A DNA stretch of 63,192 bases, filler included. It is 8 parts of 8 records of this genome, joined end to end, with 100 filler letters (N's around TTAATTAATTAA, not from the genome) between each part and the next. Parts side by side here need not be neighbours in the genome. Positions count along the whole stretch, not along the records: positions 45,078 to 56,663 come from SRR31156797_11815; 7 more parts are not named here. One strand, written 5' to 3'. The notes under the pieces are model-generated. The model searched no databases, was not told the DNA's origin, and worked only from the letters and a program-made list of their open reading frames with translations. A program made the translations under genes and the position numbers. Shown one piece after another: positions 45,079 to 56,222 of this stretch. Numbering within the stretch: the stretch's first letter is position 1; each line of letters starts with the position of its first letter.

Positions 45079-46038
45079 GGTGGGCTGTTAGCTAATCCTG
45101 ATTCAGGGGTCACGGAGAGCAATCTTGATCAGGCTCTCGTGGCTGGCGCTCAAGGATCAGATGTTGATAGTCATAATGATATCCTATCCGGAGGCGATGG
45201 CCTTTACAACGACACCCCAGATACCCCGGTGGACACAGAAGCTCCTGGGGGCACCTCAAACACGAACCCAGGGAATACAAATTCGGGGAATACGAATTCA
45301 GGGAGCACGACGACAAGAACTTTGCCCGTAACCATGCCGGAGGTTTCACTTGACACGGTAGAGCCATACGTTCCGAGTGAAGCAGATACCGTGGCCGGTA
45401 GGCTTAATGGTTTATTGGCGTCGGAAAGCCAATACATGCAGGCTGCGAGAGAAGCAGGCGAGAGGGATGCACAGGCCCGTGGTCTGCTTAATTCCTCGCT
45501 TGCCGCTGAGGCGTCTGAAAAAGCCGCAATTGAAGCAGCCCTTCCGATTGCACAGCAAGATTCGCAGTCGTTGATTTCCACAGCAGCCGATCAGAATATT
45601 GTGAACACCAAAGCCTATCAAAGCGCACAGCTTTCAGCACAAGAGGCTAATCAAACAAGCTTATTAAATGACCAGCAAAACCAAGCAGCGTCCGACCTTT
45701 CGACACAAGACGCTGAGCAAGATGCTGCCCTTGAGGAAATAAAGCAGCAATGGGCGAACTATCGTCAACAAGTTGAGTTGGACTTCAATGACAGTATGTC
45801 TGCCATGGAGCTGACTACAAATGAAAAAAATGCCCTGGCAAGTTCCATCCAGGCATTGGGGGATAGCTTTCAATCAAACGTGGCAGGTATCCAAATTAGC
45901 GACAAGGGCAGGGGCACAAGAACAGCCGCCATAAATGACTTAGCCGACGTGTACCAAGCTAATATTGAAGCGTTGGGGTCTATCTATGGTGTTGAAGTGA
46001 CATGGTCAGGATTCGAAATGGACTGGTCTCACCTATAA
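45079..46038 (+). CDS. Phage virion protein (putative internal/ejection protein), 5'-truncated
   Basis: Frame open from the contig edge (GGLLANPDSG...); TVAGRLNGLLASESQYMQAA...ARGLLNSSLA...ALPIAQQD helical motif; Q/N-rich coiled coil. Confidence 0.65.
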   Translation, partial: GGLLANPDSGVTESNLDQALVAGAQGSDVDSHNDILSGGDGLYNDTPDTPVDTEAPGGTSNTNPGNTNSGNTNSGSTTTRTLPVTMPEVSLDTVEPYVPSEADTVAGRLNGLLASESQYMQAAREAGERDAQARGLLNSSLAAEASEKAAIEAALPIAQQDSQSLISTAADQNIVNTKAYQSAQLSAQEANQTSLLNDQQNQAASDLSTQDAEQDAALEEIKQQWANYRQQVELDFNDSMSAMELTTNEKNALASSIQALGDSFQSNVAGIQISDKGRGTRTAAINDLADVYQANIEALGSIYGVEVTWSGFEMDWSHL

Positions 46039-46047
46039 TAGCGAGGT

Positions 46048-46527
46048 TTGGTTGTGAGTATGGAAAAAGATGGGGGAAAAAAATTCGGGGTGACCAGGAC
46101 TTTTGACGAAGAAATCCTCAGTCAGATATTCAATCACCCAAGAGTCCATGGGTGGATTATAGATGATAAGTCGCCGGGGTTCCATAAGCCCATTATCAAC
46201 CCGGCTATAATTTATCTTGTCGATGAATCGAAAAGAGCAGTGGTTCAGATAAACCCTCTCAATGGTGTCTCTTGCAATGTCCACGTAGCTGCGCTGCCAG
46301 AAATGTGGGGAGTCGTTGATAAGTTCGTCAAGGAAGCTATCCAGTGGGGAATTGAGAACACAAGATACATGAAAGCTGTCGCGATGATCCCAGCGTATAA
46401 CAAGTGCGCTTTGGAAATCGCCAGGCGGGTTGGGTTTCTGCATGAAGGTGTTTTAAGAAAATCGTTTTTAAAGAATTGGAAACTTCATGACCAAATAATT
46501 TTGGGTCTTTGTAAGGAGGATATTTAA
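46048..46527 (+). CDS. Phage GNAT-fold protein (DUF2824/P22 gp14-like)
   Basis: CNVHVAALPEMWG...AMIPAYNKCALEIARRVGFLHEGVLRKSFLKNWKLHDQIILGL; true start may be ATG 46060. Confidence 0.75.
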   Translation: MVVSMEKDGGKKFGVTRTFDEEILSQIFNHPRVHGWIIDDKSPGFHKPIINPAIIYLVDESKRAVVQINPLNGVSCNVHVAALPEMWGVVDKFVKEAIQWGIENTRYMKAVAMIPAYNKCALEIARRVGFLHEGVLRKSFLKNWKLHDQIILGLCKEDI

Positions 46528-47297
46528 TGGCATCAGGAGCGGTAGCAGTGGCTGCCTGGATAGGTTCATCAGTAGGGGCGGCGGTTGGGTCAGCCGCTAC
46601 GGCAGTGGGTGTGTCTGCTGCAACAGCTGCGACGGTAGCAGCAGCAGTGACGGCCGTAGCCACAAAGGTGGTTATAGGGGCAGCCGTGGGCGCTGTGATT
46701 GGAGGGGCCACATCGGCCATTACCGGGGGCAATATTCTTGACGGGGCGTTAAGGGGGGCCGCAATCGGAGGGGTGACAGCCGGGGTTTTCTCCGGGCTCA
46801 GTATGGCTACCGGGTATGCGTCAGCCGCCGAACAGATGGCCGGGCTTGGGCTGACTGAAACTGGGGCTGCTTTGCCGGAAGTTACTGCGCCTGCCTCAAC
46901 CGGGGCTCTTGCCCAAGGCAGTGCCGGTGCTGTGGATATACCCGCCGCACCATCAGGGCTTCTTGCCCAAGGCAGTACCGGTGCTGTGGATATACCCGCG
47001 TCCAATATTGCTGCCAACGGAGGCGGAGAAGCAGCAAAACAAGGCCTTTTGAGTAGAATATCAGATTCAGCTTTAAGCGATGAAGGCATAGGCGGCATGA
47101 TTGAAGGCGGCTTCAAGGGGGTCGGTCAAGTTGCCGCATCGAAACTTGAAAAAGACAAAGAGATGGAGCTGGCGGAATATGAAGTCAAACAAAAAGCCAT
47201 AGATCAATCTCAGGCCGACGATTTTCAAGCGCGGACTGCAAACATTAAAGTCCCGGATTGGTGGAACAAGTACTCTAAGACGGAGGCAACGGCATGA
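46527..47297 (+). CDS. Ala/Gly-rich hydrophobic phage protein, putative ejection protein (gp7-like position)
   Basis: Glycine-zipper N-terminus (GAAVGAVIGGATSAITGG...GAAIGG); position after the GNAT gene. Confidence 0.65.
   Translation: MASGAVAVAAWIGSSVGAAVGSAATAVGVSAATAATVAAAVTAVATKVVIGAAVGAVIGGATSAITGGNILDGALRGAAIGGVTAGVFSGLSMATGYASAAEQMAGLGLTETGAALPEVTAPASTGALAQGSAGAVDIPAAPSGLLAQGSTGAVDIPASNIAANGGGEAAKQGLLSRISDSALSDEGIGGMIEGGFKGVGQVAASKLEKDKEMELAEYEVKQKAIDQSQADDFQARTANIKVPDWWNKYSKTEATA
46907..46999 (+). repeat. In-frame tandem duplication, period 54 bp (18 aa)
   Basis: TCTTGCCCAAGGCAGT[G/A]CCGGTGCTGTGGATATACCCGC at 46907-46945 and 46961-46999, one mismatch in 39. Confidence 0.9.
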
Positions 47298-47860
47298 ATT
47301 TAAATGATGCTATGCAGAGTGACCAGGGCCAGCAGGCCCAGCCCTCACAGCAGCCTGTCAGACAGCAAACCGCCCAACAAGGCCAGCAGCAAGCCGAGCA
47401 AGGACAGGTGTCACCTGAAGCACAACAGGAGTTTGATATCTTCGTTGCAAACGGAATGAGCGTAATCCATTCCCAACAGGTTACTGAAGGCATCTTGTAT
47501 AATGTCTCAAAAAATAAAAACAGGCTTGAAGCCTTTGCTACAATACTTGTCAGCGTGGTTTCTAAGCTGTTCGATTCAGCGAGTAATAATGGAGTTAAAA
47601 TCACAAATGATACCCTTGTCCATGGATCCAATGTTTTGTTGCAAGAAATTTTGGGCGTAGCACAGGCTGCCGGAATGGGAGAATTAAACGAAGAACAAAA
47701 AACTGAAATCTTCCAGCGTGGGATTGGCATGTATTTGGACCAGGCCGTTAAAACCGGGAGGATGACCAAGGAGGAGCTTGTCTCTATGGGTGAGCAGGCC
47801 AAGCAAACTCCGGAGGGCCAAGAAGTCATGCAAACCGCACAGAAGTCAGGGGGACTTTAA
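47294..47860 (+). CDS. Hypothetical phage protein with a Gln-rich N-terminus
   Basis: ATGA overlap and SD GGAGG; helical core. Confidence 0.75.
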   Translation: MNLNDAMQSDQGQQAQPSQQPVRQQTAQQGQQQAEQGQVSPEAQQEFDIFVANGMSVIHSQQVTEGILYNVSKNKNRLEAFATILVSVVSKLFDSASNNGVKITNDTLVHGSNVLLQEILGVAQAAGMGELNEEQKTEIFQRGIGMYLDQAVKTGRMTKEELVSMGEQAKQTPEGQEVMQTAQKSGGL

Positions 47861-48997
47861 ATGGGTTCATGGGGAGCAGGTCTCCTTGCGGCCGTTAGCG
47901 GTGCTGGGGAGGGTTTAGGCAAGGCCATGGGCAACCAGGCCCGTGAAAAAAGGAAAGAAACAGTTGATGCGGCGAAGGCCAGGGCTCTTGAGGAAAAACA
48001 AAAGAACCTTTTATTCCTGCAAAACGAATTAGCCGGTCAACGCCAGGATAGACAAAACGCTTTTAAGGTGGGTCAACAAGGATCTGGTAGGTTCGATGGT
48101 GGACACGAACTGACCAATGCTGAATTTGGCGCTCTCCCGGAGTCTGGGCGCAAAGGGCTCCTCTCTACTGCTGAGTATGAACAGTCTTTGGCTGATCGAA
48201 AATTTGGCGAAGCAAAAAAAGTAGCGGATTACCAACATGGCCTTGGCATGCAAAGGGATAGCCATAAGGCTGGATTGAAAACAACATCCAAGACGGATCT
48301 TGAGCAGAAATATAATTTTCTTGCCAATACCTTTGGTGAAGAAAAAGCAAAAGAAATGATCTCCGCATCACTGGTTAAGAAAAGTGGTGGTGATACAGCC
48401 CTTGATTACCGCAAATTATGGAACGACGCCTACAACAAGAAACTGAAGATTTTGACGGAAGACATGTCAGACCAAAGGACTCTTACTGAAAAAGAAGCCG
48501 ATGCAAGGGCAATGGCGGACCAGGTGGCAGGCGTTTCATTGGGCGGTGGACAGGGTGGGGTTGTACCTGGTTCTCTTGCCGACCGCGTTGCAAGAATCAA
48601 TAGTCAGAAAAAAGAGCCGCAAAAACCGATGCCCAAGACAGAGGATGGTTCTCAACAATCAGCCCAAGGGAGCCGTGGTCTTTTGTCTATGGATCCAAGC
48701 ACACCAATAGCAGAAAGCCGTAAAATAGAAAATGCTGCAGGGTTTAAAACCTCGATGGATTCCATTGCTGAAAATTCAGGCATGAACGCATCGGCCAATG
48801 TTCAGAATGCAATAAAACTCACAAGGGGGCAGTACAACCCGACAGATGGCTCTATTCAGTTTAAACCCAAAGATGAGTCAGATCTGAAAGCTATTTTGGT
48901 TGAGCTGAAAAAACAAGGCATAGAGTTTGGTGCTGAGCGCGGGAGCAATGGAGAAATCATACTTCGTATCACCGAAAGACAAAGGTTTGTGAATTAA
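47861..48997 (+). CDS. Putative phage ejection protein (gp20-like position)
   Basis: MGSWGAGLLAAVSGAGEGLG amphipathic start followed by charged helices. Confidence 0.6.
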   Translation: MGSWGAGLLAAVSGAGEGLGKAMGNQAREKRKETVDAAKARALEEKQKNLLFLQNELAGQRQDRQNAFKVGQQGSGRFDGGHELTNAEFGALPESGRKGLLSTAEYEQSLADRKFGEAKKVADYQHGLGMQRDSHKAGLKTTSKTDLEQKYNFLANTFGEEKAKEMISASLVKKSGGDTALDYRKLWNDAYNKKLKILTEDMSDQRTLTEKEADARAMADQVAGVSLGGGQGGVVPGSLADRVARINSQKKEPQKPMPKTEDGSQQSAQGSRGLLSMDPSTPIAESRKIENAAGFKTSMDSIAENSGMNASANVQNAIKLTRGQYNPTDGSIQFKPKDESDLKAILVELKKQGIEFGAERGSNGEIILRITERQRFVN

Positions 48998-49001
48998 GCT
49001 T

Positions 49002-52000
49002 ATGCAATTCTCTTTCATGGACGATCCCGGATGGGGCCAACTAGACCACGACACCAAGCAGGCAGTGATAGTTTCTGCATTTGAGGATGATATTGTTTCT
49101 GACCCAGGGTGGTCGAATCTGGATGACGACACCAAGCGGCAAGTGCAGGATAGTTATTTCCAAGATGCTGAGGAGTATAGCCGGAAAGTTTCTCCACACG
49201 CTGACGGTTTTCTTGGTGCTGTCACGGGAGGTGCCGAGCATGCGTTAAGTAGCGTCATGACGGCATGGAATGCATTAACCGGGGATGACGAGGAGGTTAA
49301 AGATTTAACCAGCGATGCTTCAAGGATTTTGAAAACCTCGGAACAAGATGCTTTTATCCAATCTCTTCAGGATAAAAAGACAGATGATCAAAAAGTCACA
49401 GGCTGGGAAAGCTTTAAGCAAGGACTCGGGAACGTTGCCGGAGCCGCATGGGACGAACCCATGGGCGCATTGCATGAAGTTGCCGGCCAGATCCCGAATG
49501 CCGGAATCGCACTGGGTGGTATGTGGGCCGGGGCCAAGACTGGAGCTGCGGTTGGGTCATTAACTGGGACTCCGCTTGGCGCAGGAGTGGGGGGTATTGT
49601 TGGTGGCATCATGGGGCTCTTTTTTGGGAATGCTGCCCTGGAGGTCGGCAATGTTGCCCAGGACCAGGCCCGGGCCGGAACATATGATCGTGGCGACACA
49701 TTGAAGCGAGGAACTATAAAAGGTGCGGTTATTACCGGTGTTGATACGGCCACCATGGGTATTTCCAAGGCTCTTTTTACACCTGCTTTCCGTGCGGCCG
49801 GTAAGGCGTCACAGGAAGCCGTTGAAAATGTATTAAAGGCAAGTAACATCAATCCGTTTGACGATGCGGCAGTAAAGCTTGCATTGTCCCAGGACGCCGG
49901 GTTGAAAAAAGCGGTTATGGATGCCGGGGCCAAAGCTGCACTTGAAGCTGCCCCAAAGGGGATCAAGAACGCTGGCCTTCACGGGATTGCCATGGGAGCC
50001 GACATTATCGGAGAAGGCGGCGGAGAGTTTTACGGTTCCATGGCCGCCGGGTTAAACCCGGATATTAGCGACGCCATCCTTGAAGCGGCTATGTCTATGC
50101 CGCATGGTGCCGCAGAGGTCGCAGTCGGCAAGTCTCTTGCGAAAGGCAAGGGTTTGTTAGCAGGGTCGGACAACTCTGTTTCGAGTATTGGTGCCGCACA
50201 AACAGCCGACGAAGCAGTTCAGGCCTTTGAATCATCTGTTTCTGATGAATTGGACAGTGTTGCTTCTGAAGCCCAGAGCGACGAAATGGCAACCCAACAG
50301 CAAACAACCAGCCCGAACTTAATGGGGCGCGAATCTGATGAGTTCAGCCAGTTCCAGGAAAGCTTTCGTGATCAGAAAATTGATGATTTTGAGCAGGAGT
50401 TAAAGCAGGCTCAAACCGATATCCAAAGTTATTCCCACCCGGATGTTCGCCCAGAAATGACACCCGCGCAAAGAGAAGCAATCAACCGGATGGACCCGGA
50501 GTGGAGAAGGCGAGACGATGCGGCCAAAGCGCTTGAGGCACAGATAGATAGGCGTGAGCCGGTTAATCCTGATCAATTCAATTTTCAGCGAGGATTAAGA
50601 GCTCAACCCCAAGAACAAGACCGGATGCCGTTACCAGGGGAGATGCCAGCCTTTCAACGGAGCATGGACGGCAAGGGTCAACGCCCTTTTGCTGACCTGG
50701 ATAAGCGTATCGCAGATAAAGAACGCGGCACGACGGTTAAGGCCGAAATGTTGCCGGCAGAACGTGGTTACGATGATGGTTTGGACGTGACGGCAGATGC
50801 CGAGTATATACCCAATTCTGTTATTGATCAGCGAAATTTTCAAAATGGCTTGGGTGATAATGAGTTTTTTGGAATGCAGGACTTGGGCGGCAAAGATATA
50901 GATAAGGCCAAAATCCCATTATCCACACCTGGACCAGTTGTAAAGAAATCCCTTACAACCAAAAAGCAAACCCCAATCGTCAAAGAAAACTTGACAGTTG
51001 CCCCGGGTGCAGCCGTTACCTGGCAGAATAAAAAGGGCCAATCCTTTTCCGGGATGTTGGTGCAAAAACGGCCCGGCAGCAAATCCACATGGCAAATCAA
51101 GAGGGGTGACGGAAAACGAGTCTTTTTGTCAGAGAAAAGCTTTTCTGTTGCTCCGCAAGCAATTACCGATAGCCGTACAGTTGAAACGCCGCCGGTTACG
51201 GGTGAGTTGCAAACCGAGCCAGTCAACAAACAATCAACAAAAACACCCACCGAAGAACAGCCACATACAGGCGTTTCAAAAGAAAGTGACAAAAGACCAC
51301 CTTTATTTGTTACCCAGGAATCAAATAAAAAAGATTCCTTGAAAGCAGGAGAAGCCCGGGGAGCATCCGATGATTCAGGAATAACACAAAAAGACAGTGA
51401 AGGCACTCCCAATCAAACACCACTCCGCAAGCAAAGAACTATCAATGATATTGCGGGTGGAGAAGTTCGGCTCTCCACATCCAACGATCTTAAAAGCGTC
51501 AAAGGTTACATTCAAAAAGCACTGGCTGGTGAAGGGCTGCCAAACAAGAAGATTGGCGTCGTATCTTCCGAGCATGCAAAAAGAATTCAATCACTGACAG
51601 GCGTCGATGTCTCGGGCTTCACCCATGAACTTGTTGCAAATGACATCCGTCATGCAATGAACAGCCACGGTGATGCTAAAAAAGAAGCCAAGAGAAATCA
51701 GGTCGCAATCACTGAAGACGATTTAAGATTGATTCCAGATATTATAGCCAGCCCTGATTCAATCCAAAAAGGATCTATCAGTAACCAGGGGCAAAAATCT
51801 GTACGTTTTATTAAGAGGGTCAATGGCACGATCGTATATGTTGAAGTTGTGCATAAAAAAGGGTCTTTGCAATCAAAGACCCTTTGGAAAAAGCCATCTG
51901 CCAGTGCCGATGCTGCATCAAGAATGCCCTCCGACAATACGTCCGAAACTGCTGTCAGTCCGCTTTTAGATAATAATATATCAAACAAACCCGATTCAGG

Positions 52001-55000
52001 CAATGAAAAGTATCAAGCCGATTCAGGGGCGCCGCAAAAAATAGAACAACCCGACAAACAACAATCAGATTACGGTCAAAAAAACAAAGTCTTCACCAAA
52101 GAAGGCGCCGACAAGGCCCGTGAACTTCTCCGCAAAAAACTCTCCGGCACCCAATTAAATTCCGGGATCGATCCTGAAGTTATGCTGGCCGGCATCCAAC
52201 TGGCCGGGTATCACATCGAAGCGGGAGCCCGGTCCTTCTCTGAATACTCCAAAGCTATGATTAAGGATGTGGGTGAAACCATCAAGCCTTACCTGCGGTC
52301 CTTTTATGAGGGGGCCAGACACTACCCTGAATTTGATTCTGCGGGCATGGATGATGCCGCCACTCCGGATGCTACACCGAAAACTCAAGGCGATACAATT
52401 GGAAAAGCCGTAAGTGCCAGGATCAATGACAAATATGCGGACATCTTATCACTACCAGAGGATTTATCCGGACCGGAGATCCTTGATGGGATCAATGAAG
52501 GCACATTAACCCCCAGGGCACTTGACAAGTTTCTTGAAAAATCAGATTCTTTAGAGGAAGATATTCAAACCGCAAAGGCTGCGGTCGCTGACCGGATAGG
52601 TGATTTAAAGGAGACTTACCGCTATGAAAGCGAAAAAGAAGGAAAGGTCCTCGAAGAATACATTGACTCCCTGCTCACCGTCTTGTCGAAAGACCGGGTA
52701 TCCGGAAACGCCTTGCCAGATCGAGGTGCCACATCCAAAGACGGAGAAGCGGCCAGAGGGGTATCCGACGATTCAGGAGTAAAAGAGAATCGCGCCCAAT
52801 ATTCCACCAGTAGCGCACCGGAGAAAGGTGCGCAGTATTCCCTTGGCCATTCCCCTGGTCAAGATCTCTCTGTCGGTGAAGACATGCCGATGTTCCAGGT
52901 TGATCAAGCCGCGCACGATTCCAAACCCAGCTCTCTGAAGGGCGACCCTCTCACCCCAACAGAACCCGAAAAGAAGAAAACTTACAGCCAAATTGCATCC
53001 GGCATATCCAATGTGATCAAAAACCGGAAAAACAAGGGGCCTGGATATAAAAAAGACATCGGTGTCATAGAAAACACCCTGGGTTTAATGTCCCATTATT
53101 CCGAAGGTATTCCCGCATTAAAAAGAGCATTCGAAGAACTCCTTAAGCGCCCCGAATGGAAGTTCCAGAAAGAAAACGAACTGTTCAAAAACGGTGAAGA
53201 ATCAATGATTGGTACCATTGAGGATTTGCAGAAGCATAATAAAGCGGCCTACTTTAGGTTGAAAGAGTATCTTGTTGATCGGGATATCAATCAAATCGGT
53301 GCCATTATTTCTCAGGACGAAGATGGCACATGGACAATCAAATCTCCAAAAGACGAACGTACCGGTAAGCGATCCATTTTAGAAGAAGGGATTTCAACAA
53401 AAAAGAAAGCTCGTGATTTAGCGATTCAGTACGAGGTGGATGAGTATCCAGACTCTACTGGCCGCGATGCGCTACGGGCCTTCCGTACTATGACAGCCAA
53501 TCTCCATGATTTCTATGCCGAATCCTGGGAAGCCATCATGAAAGAATATGAGGATCGTGGCCTTACTCTGCCAGAGGTTGTGTCCCGGACAAAATCAGGT
53601 GAAGTCAGAATTGATTTAAAAGTGGCCCTGGCCCAGATGGGCGAAAGGTCGTCTTATTATTTTCCGAGGCAGCGGTCGAATGGTGACTGGCAGGTATTTG
53701 CTTCTAAAAAAGGAGAGCACGATTTCATCGAATACCGGGATTTAAAAACAACTGCTGATTATCTGGCCGGAAGGATGATTGCCGAAGGGTATGATGTTGA
53801 GGTTAAAAAGGTCGGCAGCATGTCCGAGGATTTATTTCAAGGGGTTGGCAGCCCCCTTTTCGTGCAATCTTTAGTTAACCAGGCCCTGGCCGAAACCAAG
53901 ATGGATGTGAAAGTTCGAGACTTGAAAGATCTCGGGCTGAAGGGCGAATGGAGGAAGGACGGATATTACATCCCCAACGGTGGCGTTTACGAGTGGTCTT
54001 CTTCTGTCCTGTCAAGGCTGGGTGGGCGTGAGTATTCAGACCACGGGAAACGGGGGATGTCGTGGTCTCCCGGGTATTGGTTCGAAAACGCCCCCAAAGA
54101 CATAGAAGAGGTCGTAACCAACGCATTATATGTTGCCAGGGGACAGGAAACTGATGTTTCTTTTGAAATCGCCCAGAGTTTAGCCAATCAGCTATCCGAT
54201 ACATTACGGTCCAGGGGCAGCAGGGCTAGGATGATATCCAGGTCAGATGCTATCGGGAAAGATGTTCCTATCGGATATGAGACGGATCCGTTAAAAGCCA
54301 TCGCCCAAGCTGTAAATTCTGCTGCCGGCGGTTACGCAAAGCAGCAAGTTGCCATGAATACGTCTAAGGCGATCACGGGCCAGCACTACACCTGGGATGA
54401 ATGGCAGAAACAACACCCGGACTATGATGCCCTGACAGCTGCCGAGGATGATTTGAAATCCCTTCAAAAAAATTCGAGCACCGAAGAGGAACGAATTGCA
54501 GACATTGATCGTGAAATAAAGGAGCTGCAGCGAGAACGGACAGGGGTAAAAACAGAGTCAGAAAAAGCCAGGCAAGACCGGCTTTTCCGTATCGGTACCC
54601 TGTTCAGGGAAAAGGAGAAAATCCGAAAGTGGACGGATAAAAAACAGGCCGCTGATGCACACCAGGAGATTGCCAGATTAAGAGGGGTTATTCATCGGGA
54701 GTACCGGGAATACATTCAAGAAAACATGATTGACCCGAAGAAACAAAAACGGGCCTATACTGATGTCGTGAACGCTGTTGAGAATGTTCTTAAAAACGAT
54801 GAGGCCGCCGACCGGGTAATTGGAACGCTTAAAGGTCTTGCATCGGTTTGGTTTTTAGGTGGACGCCTGTCTTCTGCTGCTATCAACCTGACAGCCATGG
54901 GGACCACGGTTCCGGCCGCCATGGACTCCTATGGCGGAATTCCCTTGAAGCGGACAGTTCGGCATATTGCGAAAGCCGGAAAGGCTTATGCATCTTTTAT

Positions 55001-56222
55001 CACCGGCAAAGGGACAGTTTCAAAGGCAGATCGGGCAATCCTGGAAGATATTTTTTCCAGAGGATGGGTTGCGGCACAGTTGAACATGGAAACTGTAAAT
55101 GCGTTGAAATCTGGTCCGGCACAAAAGTATGGGCGGGTCGTTGAATTGCTCATGACGCCGTTTAAGATCACGGAGGAATTCAATCGTGGCGTTACCATCT
55201 TGGCCGCATATAAGGGGGTCGTGGCTGAAAACCCTGATATGAACAAGGAAGATGCATTGGCAAAAGCCAAAACCGTATCTGACCGTGCCCATGGTATCTA
55301 TGGTGTTGAAAATCAACCGGCGTTACTGAGAAAGGGCAGGGGGCTACGGGCTGCATCAGCCATGTATATTTTCCAGACATTCATGCACAATTATTTTACC
55401 ACGTTGTCTTATATGATTGGCCGGAGGCAAGCAGGTGCGGCAACATATATGATCCTTTCTCCTATGGTGTTCGGCGGTGCGGCCAGTTCCATCATGTTGC
55501 CCGCTGTAAAAATGATATTCAAAGCTTTTGATGAGGATGATCCAGAAGAAAAAATATATCAGATTGCTGAAAAGTTATTTGGTGAACCCGGTGGTAGTGT
55601 TGCCCGTTATGGCCTACCTGGTTTAGCAGGGGTTTCTCTGAAAGGGTCTCTTGCGCCCAATTTGCCAGACTTTAAAGAGCCATTGGACGCCCTAGGCCCA
55701 ATCGGTGGAATGATGCGCAATATCTACCAAGGAGGGGTTAATATTACCCAAGGCGATTACCTGAAAGGGGTTGAAAAGATCACACCGCTTGCCATGGGTA
55801 ATATAGCGAAAGCCTACCGAGAGGTTTCTGATGGGGTTACCACCAGGGCCGGGGACCCGGTCTTTTTCGGTGATGAACAGATTAAAGGAAATATCGGAAC
55901 CGGTATTATGAGGGCCGCCGGGCTAAATCCCACAAGGATTGCGAAACCTCGCGAGGTCCAATGGAATGAAACAACGCTCAAGCGTCAATATGCTGAACTA
56001 AAACGCAGGATCTACAGCATGATTATTCGTTATCACGCTCAGCCTATATCAAAAAAGAGCCCTACCGAATGGAGGGATATCGTCCAGGATATTAAAGAAT
56101 TTAATGCCAGGGTGAAAAGTAATGGGCTGGGTGATGTTGTGCCTATAATTACGGCCAAAACGATTAAAAACAGAGTCCGTAGGGCATTCCGACCAAACAA
56201 GCGCGAGCGAGACAGAGCATAA
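49002..56222 (+). CDS. Giant polyvalent phage virion protein: glycine-zipper TM region, SH3-like segment, PBECR3-like nuclease, PLxRFG-like C-terminal region
   Basis: GAKTGAAVG...GGIVGGIMG; IGVVS...TGVDVSGFTHEL...IRHAMNSHG...E..RNQVAITEDD...IPDII..PD...YVEV (PBECR3-like); YYFPRQR; WFLG...SAAINL...EEFNR...AHGIY...N.P. Confidence 0.75.
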   Translation: MQFSFMDDPGWGQLDHDTKQAVIVSAFEDDIVSDPGWSNLDDDTKRQVQDSYFQDAEEYSRKVSPHADGFLGAVTGGAEHALSSVMTAWNALTGDDEEVKDLTSDASRILKTSEQDAFIQSLQDKKTDDQKVTGWESFKQGLGNVAGAAWDEPMGALHEVAGQIPNAGIALGGMWAGAKTGAAVGSLTGTPLGAGVGGIVGGIMGLFFGNAALEVGNVAQDQARAGTYDRGDTLKRGTIKGAVITGVDTATMGISKALFTPAFRAAGKASQEAVENVLKASNINPFDDAAVKLALSQDAGLKKAVMDAGAKAALEAAPKGIKNAGLHGIAMGADIIGEGGGEFYGSMAAGLNPDISDAILEAAMSMPHGAAEVAVGKSLAKGKGLLAGSDNSVSSIGAAQTADEAVQAFESSVSDELDSVASEAQSDEMATQQQTTSPNLMGRESDEFSQFQESFRDQKIDDFEQELKQAQTDIQSYSHPDVRPEMTPAQREAINRMDPEWRRRDDAAKALEAQIDRREPVNPDQFNFQRGLRAQPQEQDRMPLPGEMPAFQRSMDGKGQRPFADLDKRIADKERGTTVKAEMLPAERGYDDGLDVTADAEYIPNSVIDQRNFQNGLGDNEFFGMQDLGGKDIDKAKIPLSTPGPVVKKSLTTKKQTPIVKENLTVAPGAAVTWQNKKGQSFSGMLVQKRPGSKSTWQIKRGDGKRVFLSEKSFSVAPQAITDSRTVETPPVTGELQTEPVNKQSTKTPTEEQPHTGVSKESDKRPPLFVTQESNKKDSLKAGEARGASDDSGITQKDSEGTPNQTPLRKQRTINDIAGGEVRLSTSNDLKSVKGYIQKALAGEGLPNKKIGVVSSEHAKRIQSLTGVDVSGFTHELVANDIRHAMNSHGDAKKEAKRNQVAITEDDLRLIPDIIASPDSIQKGSISNQGQKSVRFIKRVNGTIVYVEVVHKKGSLQSKTLWKKPSASADAASRMPSDNTSETAVSPLLDNNISNKPDSGNEKYQADSGAPQKIEQPDKQQSDYGQKNKVFTKEGADKARELLRKKLSGTQLNSGIDPEVMLAGIQLAGYHIEAGARSFSEYSKAMIKDVGETIKPYLRSFYEGARHYPEFDSAGMDDAATPDATPKTQGDTIGKAVSARINDKYADILSLPEDLSGPEILDGINEGTLTPRALDKFLEKSDSLEEDIQTAKAAVADRIGDLKETYRYESEKEGKVLEEYIDSLLTVLSKDRVSGNALPDRGATSKDGEAARGVSDDSGVKENRAQYSTSSAPEKGAQYSLGHSPGQDLSVGEDMPMFQVDQAAHDSKPSSLKGDPLTPTEPEKKKTYSQIASGISNVIKNRKNKGPGYKKDIGVIENTLGLMSHYSEGIPALKRAFEELLKRPEWKFQKENELFKNGEESMIGTIEDLQKHNKAAYFRLKEYLVDRDINQIGAIISQDEDGTWTIKSPKDERTGKRSILEEGISTKKKARDLAIQYEVDEYPDSTGRDALRAFRTMTANLHDFYAESWEAIMKEYEDRGLTLPEVVSRTKSGEVRIDLKVALAQMGERSSYYFPRQRSNGDWQVFASKKGEHDFIEYRDLKTTADYLAGRMIAEGYDVEVKKVGSMSEDLFQGVGSPLFVQSLVNQALAETKMDVKVRDLKDLGLKGEWRKDGYYIPNGGVYEWSSSVLSRLGGREYSDHGKRGMSWSPGYWFENAPKDIEEVVTNALYVARGQETDVSFEIAQSLANQLSDTLRSRGSRARMISRSDAIGKDVPIGYETDPLKAIAQAVNSAAGGYAKQQVAMNTSKAITGQHYTWDEWQKQHPDYDALTAAEDDLKSLQKNSSTEEERIADIDREIKELQRERTGVKTESEKARQDRLFRIGTLFREKEKIRKWTDKKQAADAHQEIARLRGVIHREYREYIQENMIDPKKQKRAYTDVVNAVENVLKNDEAADRVIGTLKGLASVWFLGGRLSSAAINLTAMGTTVPAAMDSYGGIPLKRTVRHIAKAGKAYASFITGKGTVSKADRAILEDIFSRGWVAAQLNMETVNALKSGPAQKYGRVVELLMTPFKITEEFNRGVTILAAYKGVVAENPDMNKEDALAKAKTVSDRAHGIYGVENQPALLRKGRGLRAASAMYIFQTFMHNYFTTLSYMIGRRQAGAATYMILSPMVFGGAASSIMLPAVKMIFKAFDEDDPEEKIYQIAEKLFGEPGGSVARYGLPGLAGVSLKGSLAPNLPDFKEPLDALGPIGGMMRNIYQGGVNITQGDYLKGVEKITPLAMGNIAKAYREVSDGVTTRAGDPVFFGDEQIKGNIGTGIMRAAGLNPTRIAKPREVQWNETTLKRQYAELKRRIYSMIIRYHAQPISKKSPTEWRDIVQDIKEFNARVKSNGLGDVVPIITAKTIKNRVRRAFRPNKRERDRA

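Follow-up and report, generated by a model that had tools for sequence, protein, structure and literature searches.

The non-homologous internal proteins IpI–IpIII of bacteriophage T4 share a capsid-targeting sequence, a short peptide that the prohead protease removes. The first ten residues of IpIII are enough for a fusion to be packaged, and in P22 the scaffold, not the portal, is required for loading of the ejection proteins (E-proteins), each of which loads independently, yet no binding sites for E-proteins are known (both according to the available part of PMC8402733). Phage polyvalent proteins have also been proposed to be packaged (Iyer et al. 2017; available part of PMC5512222). Here we analyse a phage contig (positions 45078–56663) within a 63,192-nucleotide stretch of DNA, referred to as the window, and a tripeptide motif, Gly-Leu-Leu (GLL) with its variants, found in a block of four small proteins, E1–E4. 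These are likely ejection or internal virion proteins, judging by synteny and by the arrangement around an IVP-A-like acetyltransferase. A short motif on these putative ejection proteins, group-wide, is real.

The motif resembles the T4 capsid-targeting sequence in being a short peptide common to non-homologous proteins, here putatively internal. Unlike the T4 signal (~10 residues, N-terminal), it spans 3–4 residues with three informative positions, occurs in multiple copies and stands at either end or in linkers; it is also unrelated in sequence and belongs to a podophage group with no protease detected in the relatives searched (below). As in P22, a GNAT-fold gene lies beside the ejection genes; unlike the situation here, no shared loading motif for P22 gp7, gp20 and gp16 is named in the available part of PMC8402733. 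Like phage polyvalent proteins, the 2406-residue giant protein that closes the block carries PBECR3, but the available part of PMC5512222 describes no short tag common to neighbouring proteins, and in the present block the giant shows the lowest enrichment. A literature search, with most subscription papers and supplements outside it, returned no paper on a GLL or Gly-Leu-Leu motif of phage virion proteins.

GLL in putative ejection proteins

A first-pass annotation of the window had listed nine GLL sites, and all nine are in frame (its coordinates mark the residue preceding Gly). The excess it described in three non-homologous proteins also holds: E1, E2 and E4 contain eight GLL in 953 residues against 0.58 expected by composition (Poisson P = 1.8e-7), and 20-residue local shuffles of E1–E4 averaged 0.7 and never exceeded 5 in 2000 runs. 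Codons vary from site to site, which indicates a protein motif and no DNA repeat; a repeat origin was ruled out except for one duplication in E2 (spacing 54 bp), in which the first copy has GAL, not GLL. Three individual sites are probably incidental as tags: GGLLA at 45079, at the contig edge, where an aligned homologue with DUF4214 towards its N-terminus reads GGSLM; the copy at 50148 in the giant (1 versus 0.92 expected); and the SGGL end of E3, which overlaps the G-rich ribosome-binding site of E4. That the GNAT and the last open reading frame (ORF) lack GLL is true, with 0.08 expected, and thus uninformative. As for the suggested form GLL[A/S/N], Ser and Asn are indeed favoured at +1, but the real consensus is broader, G-[LIM]-[LIMV].

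We assembled a discovery set starting from an alignment of 56 E1 sequences, which led to 80 viral loci; 46 were kept by hand, after removal of duplicates, of loci that had no downstream genes and of a subgroup whose downstream block differs. Protein roles were assigned by synteny, and E2, E3, E4 and E2b (a second E2-type gene, in 11 loci) played no part in the locus search. A validation set of 33 loci was drawn from 120 (40 genome and 80 metagenome loci) by automatic filters that required E1 and E3 to be found and the locus to be non-redundant; 80 capsid-centred loci were left out of the counts. E1 was the entry point to both sets, which therefore represent a single related group.

GLL was the top-ranking tripeptide in the combined E2, E2b, E3 and E4 proteins of the discovery set (79 versus 19.8 expected), with GLI third and GLM eighth, and it ranked first again in the validation set (81 versus 13.9). 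None of the portal (0 versus 2.9), scaffold (0 versus 1.6), capsid (2 versus 4.3), nozzle (5 versus 15.5) or GNAT (1 versus 3.1) proteins of the discovery loci was enriched, and counts were close to expectation in the adaptor (3 versus 3.1) and other upstream ORFs (27 versus 25.8). Decoration proteins held 4 versus 1.7 (P = 0.09); in the validation loci, head and tail proteins held 4 versus 10.8 and the GNAT 1 versus 2.2. Observed GLL counts exceeded those of local shuffles, also once the E1 core and the hydrophobic N-terminal segments (E2, E4) had been removed (67 versus 10.4, 31 versus 7.6, 30 versus 7.1 and 30 versus 8.8); none of 300 local shuffles reached them. That the putative ejection proteins of this phage group have a short linear motif in common is strongly supported, in the discovery and separate validation loci alike.

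Copies of GLL are biased towards protein ends (E2 C-terminal end, 9 versus 2.6; E3 N-terminal end, 8 versus 1.8; E4 N-terminal end, 11 versus 2.2). A wider terminal count, using the class G-[LIMV]-[LIMV] and four protein classes in 79 loci, placed a terminal motif in at least two of the four classes in 66 loci and in at least three in 41. Fifty-two copies start within residues 1–4 and 16 end no more than three residues from the C-terminus. The first 30 residues of 42 E4 proteins hold 36 motifs, in a Gly/hydrophobic segment in most loci, and many copies stand isolated in polar Q/P-rich tails or are the final residues of the protein. The closest relative lacks two of the window's three E4 sites and one of its two E2 sites and has instead an E2 copy at the C-terminus; exceptions to this turnover are the E4 N-terminal site and both core sites of E1, which are conserved in position. 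Low-complexity or unstructured context combined with gain and loss between homologues is typical short-linear-motif (SLiM) behaviour; in its predicted structure, E3 has a compact helical core and unstructured ends.

The motif exists as GLL, GLI, GIL and GLM, and genomes tend toward one form across their proteins. Variants agreed in 43 of 107 protein pairs of the discovery set (21.3 ± 3.8 expected; 0 of 20000 permutations) and in 43 of 79 pairs of the validation set (21.7 expected). In 45 of 53 loci E1+E3 and E2+E4 share the last letter, which E1 core site B also follows (Table 1), although the validation subset alone was not significant there (p = 0.12). Neither guanine-cytosine (GC) content nor Leu usage explains the variant, which clusters by clade, yet sister loci differ. 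Raw agreement counts include shared ancestry, and co-evolution of variants across the proteins of one genome is therefore suggested only.

A proposed docking tag and its alternatives

Our proposal, which we regard as evenly poised between right and wrong, is that G-[LIM]-[LIMV] is a motif common to the four small putative ejection proteins and serves as a docking tag for procapsid loading, recognized by a single phage-encoded head-assembly reader. That protein would read the tag and gather E1–E4 into the procapsid, and multiple weak copies would sum to a binding releasable at DNA packaging. As proposed, the tag most likely works like a capsid-targeting signal, and it is outside the T4 family. 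Between the two functions first suggested, an address or a cleavage motif, the address is the best reading; cleavage is disfavoured by copies at the extreme termini and by the lack of an S78- or ClpP-type protease in five near-complete relatives.

The scaffold is the lead candidate reader, because P22 needs its scaffold, not its portal, to load all three E-proteins; that the scaffold itself reads the tag is, on this analogy, doubtful. By similar analogy, the small protein encoded just before the scaffold is an alternative lead candidate. The GNAT, also considered at first, is an improbable reader because enrichment is kept in the 11 of 46 loci without a called GNAT (20 versus 4.9); some of these may be missed calls, but L062 is clear, with an 89-residue tagged protein directly after E1. 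One column of the major-capsid A-domain (V/I) went with the tag variant in 22 of 24 loci, with no other column standing out. As a reader residue it was rejected when a preset prediction failed: among 14 new capsids, 10 were scorable (readable site and clear tag state), of which 3 agreed and 7 disagreed. A complex prediction for the closest relative's scaffold (residues 68–266, two copies) with the last 32 residues of E2 scored 0.06 against a mark of 0.34, with unfolded controls, and is not used as evidence.

Several observations weigh against a docking tag. Among the candidates examined, no reader was singled out. Although it too must be packaged, the giant protein is hardly enriched (38 versus 28.5 in the discovery and 22 versus 14.8 in the validation set). 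LLG, the same word in reverse, is slightly over-represented in E4 (15 versus 6.2) and in E2b (5 versus 1.3); LGL is not. The E3 of the window has no full tag, though E3 homologues often carry one at an end, and 13 of the 79 loci have a terminal motif in one protein class (10 loci) or in none (3). After correction for phylogeny, an average of 3.6 independent pairs on the nozzle tree went the same way and 0.0 the opposite way (median p = 0.125). Under other splits p ranged from 0.125 to 0.375, and three of five tests contained about one opposite pair. These tests are underpowered, and their direction agrees with the raw counts without ever reaching significance. GLL excess is absent from P22 (2 versus 1.0), N4 and SU10. 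Finally, peptide fingerprinting of phage PTXU04 assigned only gp7, gp10, gp11 and gp12, all outside the E1–E4 set (available part of PMC6563267).

The enrichment and variant statistics would apply equally if the tag served docking inside the phage after loading, either of an ejection-protein core on the portal or an E protein (for example, folded E3), or in passage through portal and nozzle. The two E1 core sites lie in a conserved region and track the variant, as would fit protein–protein assembly, and E3 offers its compact predicted helical core. Free position, use of both termini and rapid turnover, however, are easier to reconcile with loose recruitment by a tag than with a stoichiometric structure, and E3 is itself tagged in many loci, so that post-loading docking appears fairly unlikely. 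We give less credence still to GLL as a membrane-interface or helix-start motif, used singly by each ejection protein crossing the host envelope and needing no shared reader. Several amphibian antimicrobial peptides begin with GLL, and the Gly/hydrophobic setting of the E4 N-terminal copy would suit such a role; the copies in polar tails or at the last residues would not, and a lipid would not align the choice of GLL versus GLI/GLM across non-homologous proteins of one genome.

A host protein such as a chaperone, protease adaptor or envelope factor might instead read the tag, with variants tracking host lineage. Clustering of the variant by clade is consistent with this, as is the trimming of P22 gp7 by the host OpdA protease (record annotation), but GLL loci occur in genomes titled Halomonadales-like and Alteromonadales-like Gammaproteobacteria and Thermodesulfobacteriota, and differences between sister loci also speak against a host reader, which we consider improbable. 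In myoviruses, T4 and SPN3US among them, internal proteins are cleaved at short motifs, and the internal copies in linkers could be maturation cleavage sites. Cutting at the 52 N-terminal and 16 C-terminal copies would, however, remove almost nothing, and S78- and ClpP-type proteases were found in none of five near-complete relatives, which makes cleavage very unlikely; searches of the same five genomes for S77 and Mu-like proteases, run without a positive control, were also empty. Chance remains to be weighed: the motif has only three residues, the loci were chosen through E1 similarity and are hence related, and a C-terminal Gly can derive from an overlapping ribosome-binding site. Against this, GLL ranks first of all tripeptides in two separate sets, withstands shuffling and is depleted in same-genome controls. 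A compositional or post hoc artefact is thus scarcely credible as a general account; it is refuted for the enrichment, and is a fair reading for the single sites at 45079, 50148 and SGGL.

The phage contig and its gene block

The window (1–63192) comprises ten contigs with GC content from ~27% to 59%, joined by N/TTAATTAA spacers, and the phage contig may be mis-binned among them. Its 5' end cuts E1, and it also encodes a 126-residue ORF, the last ORF (other features in Table 1). On an unrelated contig, a 2993-residue Asp/Thr/Gly-rich ORF cut by the contig end (30586–39567) looks like a large secreted adhesin-type protein.

Table 1 Features of the phage contig, in window coordinates
Feature	Coordinates	Strand	Remarks
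E1, first putative ejection protein	45079..46038	+	5'-cut by contig edge; conserved core ending ALPIAQQD
GLL, E1 contig edge (GGLLA)	45082..45090	+	aligns with GGSLM in homologue (reads GSL)
GLL, E1 core site A	45409..45417	+	conserved column; GLL in 27 loci, GIL in 8
GLL, E1 core site B (RGLLNSS)	45481..45489	+	last letter is the genome's tag variant in 35/45 loci
GNAT-fold head-morphogenesis protein	46060..46527	+	phrog_651 E 9.5e-9, phrog_4470; no tag
E2, 256 residues	46527..47297	+	N-terminal third Gly/Ala-rich hydrophobic; low-complexity linker
GLL, E2 linker	46956..46964	+	second copy of 54-bp-spaced duplication; missing in closest homologue
GLL, E2	47043..47051	+	same place in closest homologue (L003)
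E3, 188 residues	47294..47860	+	predicted helical core 41–184, unstructured ends
E4, 378 residues	47861..48997	+	N-terminal segment Gly-rich, then charged helical and linker regions
GLL, E4 residue 7	47879..47887	+	position conserved
GLL, E4 residue 99	48155..48163	+	missing in closest homologue
GLL, E4 residue 273	48677..48685	+	in polar insertion missing in closest homologue
Giant 2406-residue polyvalent-type protein	49002..56222	+	PBECR3 domain, residues 854–968
GLL, giant protein residue 384	50151..50159	+	chance-level alone

Related loci run portal, scaffold, capsid, adaptor, nozzle, fibres, E1, GNAT, E2, E3, E4, giant. By synteny this is the layout of a podovirus ejection block, which follows the nozzle and fibres, includes an IVP-A-like acetyltransferase and ends with a very large protein (for the IVP-A/acetyltransferase arrangement, see the available part of PMC4819975); the GNAT-fold gene occupies the position of T7 IVP-A and P22 gp14. 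Among solved structures, the group's capsid profile hits N4-like capsids (E about 1e-24), the adaptor of related loci matches SU10_adaptor and the nozzle matches that of PTXU04. We use the name scaffold on the basis of position, a coiled-coil/helical model and how the syntenic StenR_269 gene is annotated. Similar short amphipathic helices are found at both ends of the closest relative's scaffold (L087, 85–975; residues 12–26 and 283–295), and in this model they are possibly two capsid-binding elements; a fold search with the scaffold model gave nothing informative beyond uncharacterised phage proteins.

The E1 N-terminus of the closest relatives (P0002; window 45079–45200) contains a DUF4214-like segment, seemingly absent in distant relatives. 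E1 was set aside as a P22 gp7 homologue, with no homology detectable by hhalign (probability 0.1%), and the E1 and E3 profiles matched no phage chain in the PDB. An E3 fold search gave no clear match (best Z 7.6; only uncharacterised phage proteins), and an Atlas search with E3 returned only hypothetical viral clusters. The giant protein matches large virion-protein PHROGs; that of L021 (2390 residues) has eight GLL, five within the first 740 residues, unlike most giants. The block varies in other ways: L072–L082 carry fibre and lysis-like genes after E1 in place of GNAT-E2-E3-E4, and L023, L061, L181 and L186 have two additional genes between E3 and E4.

Cultured relatives and significance

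In capsid profile the group resembles podophages with an N4 gp56-type capsid, which include N4, the Xuquatrovirus PTXU04 and Pseudoalteromonas phage vB_Pun_Y3. These differ in the motif. N4 lacks a GLL excess, as does StenR_269. vB_Pun_Y3 uses GLL/GLM, with G[LM][LM] at the ends of E1, E3 and E4 (9 versus 1.6). In PTXU04, whose gp19 and gp23 are homologous to E1 (hhalign 97.7%) and E3, the ejection block has no GLL excess, and a Met-rich motif, [SGN]-M-[AMG]-x-[AS], replaces GLL at the same ends (10 versus 1.1; L083, 18134–22648). This pattern, picked after viewing the sequences, is also found in Bas95 (4 versus 1.4; L084, 17634–22116) and Vibrio phage 1.232.O (2 versus 0.3). PTXU04 and Bas95 are Escherichia coli phages and suited to experiments.

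The marine phages HMO-2011, CRP-1 and HTVC103P (L288, L309 and L310) show no overall excess; single GLM/GLL copies at protein ends are no more than a lead. E1-like proteins were detected in two of the three. In two of the three, the ~165-residue protein closes with GLM and basic residues, and two of the three have a GGL[LM] word at the start of the protein encoded between portal and scaffold. The lack of a GLL excess in P22, N4 and SU10 means that the P22 analogy concerns mechanism, not sequence. A more general form of the docking-tag proposal holds that a minimal, position-free, multi-copy code read by the scaffold loads the ejection proteins of short-tailed phages, drifts in step within each genome, has become Met-rich in Xuquatrovirus and may reach the abundant HMO-2011-type marine phages; we rate this as somewhat improbable.

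The closeness to the T4 capsid-targeting sequence limits the surprise of a docking tag. Even in P22, what brings the ejection proteins of podoviruses into procapsids is nevertheless an open question, and a docking tag, if true, would explain this recruitment without a protease-cleaved leader. Cargo could then also be loaded into podophage heads by means of a handle of three residues. The natural variants and the cultured carriers, vB_Pun_Y3 with GLL/GLM and PTXU04 and Bas95 with the alternative motif, make the question directly testable.

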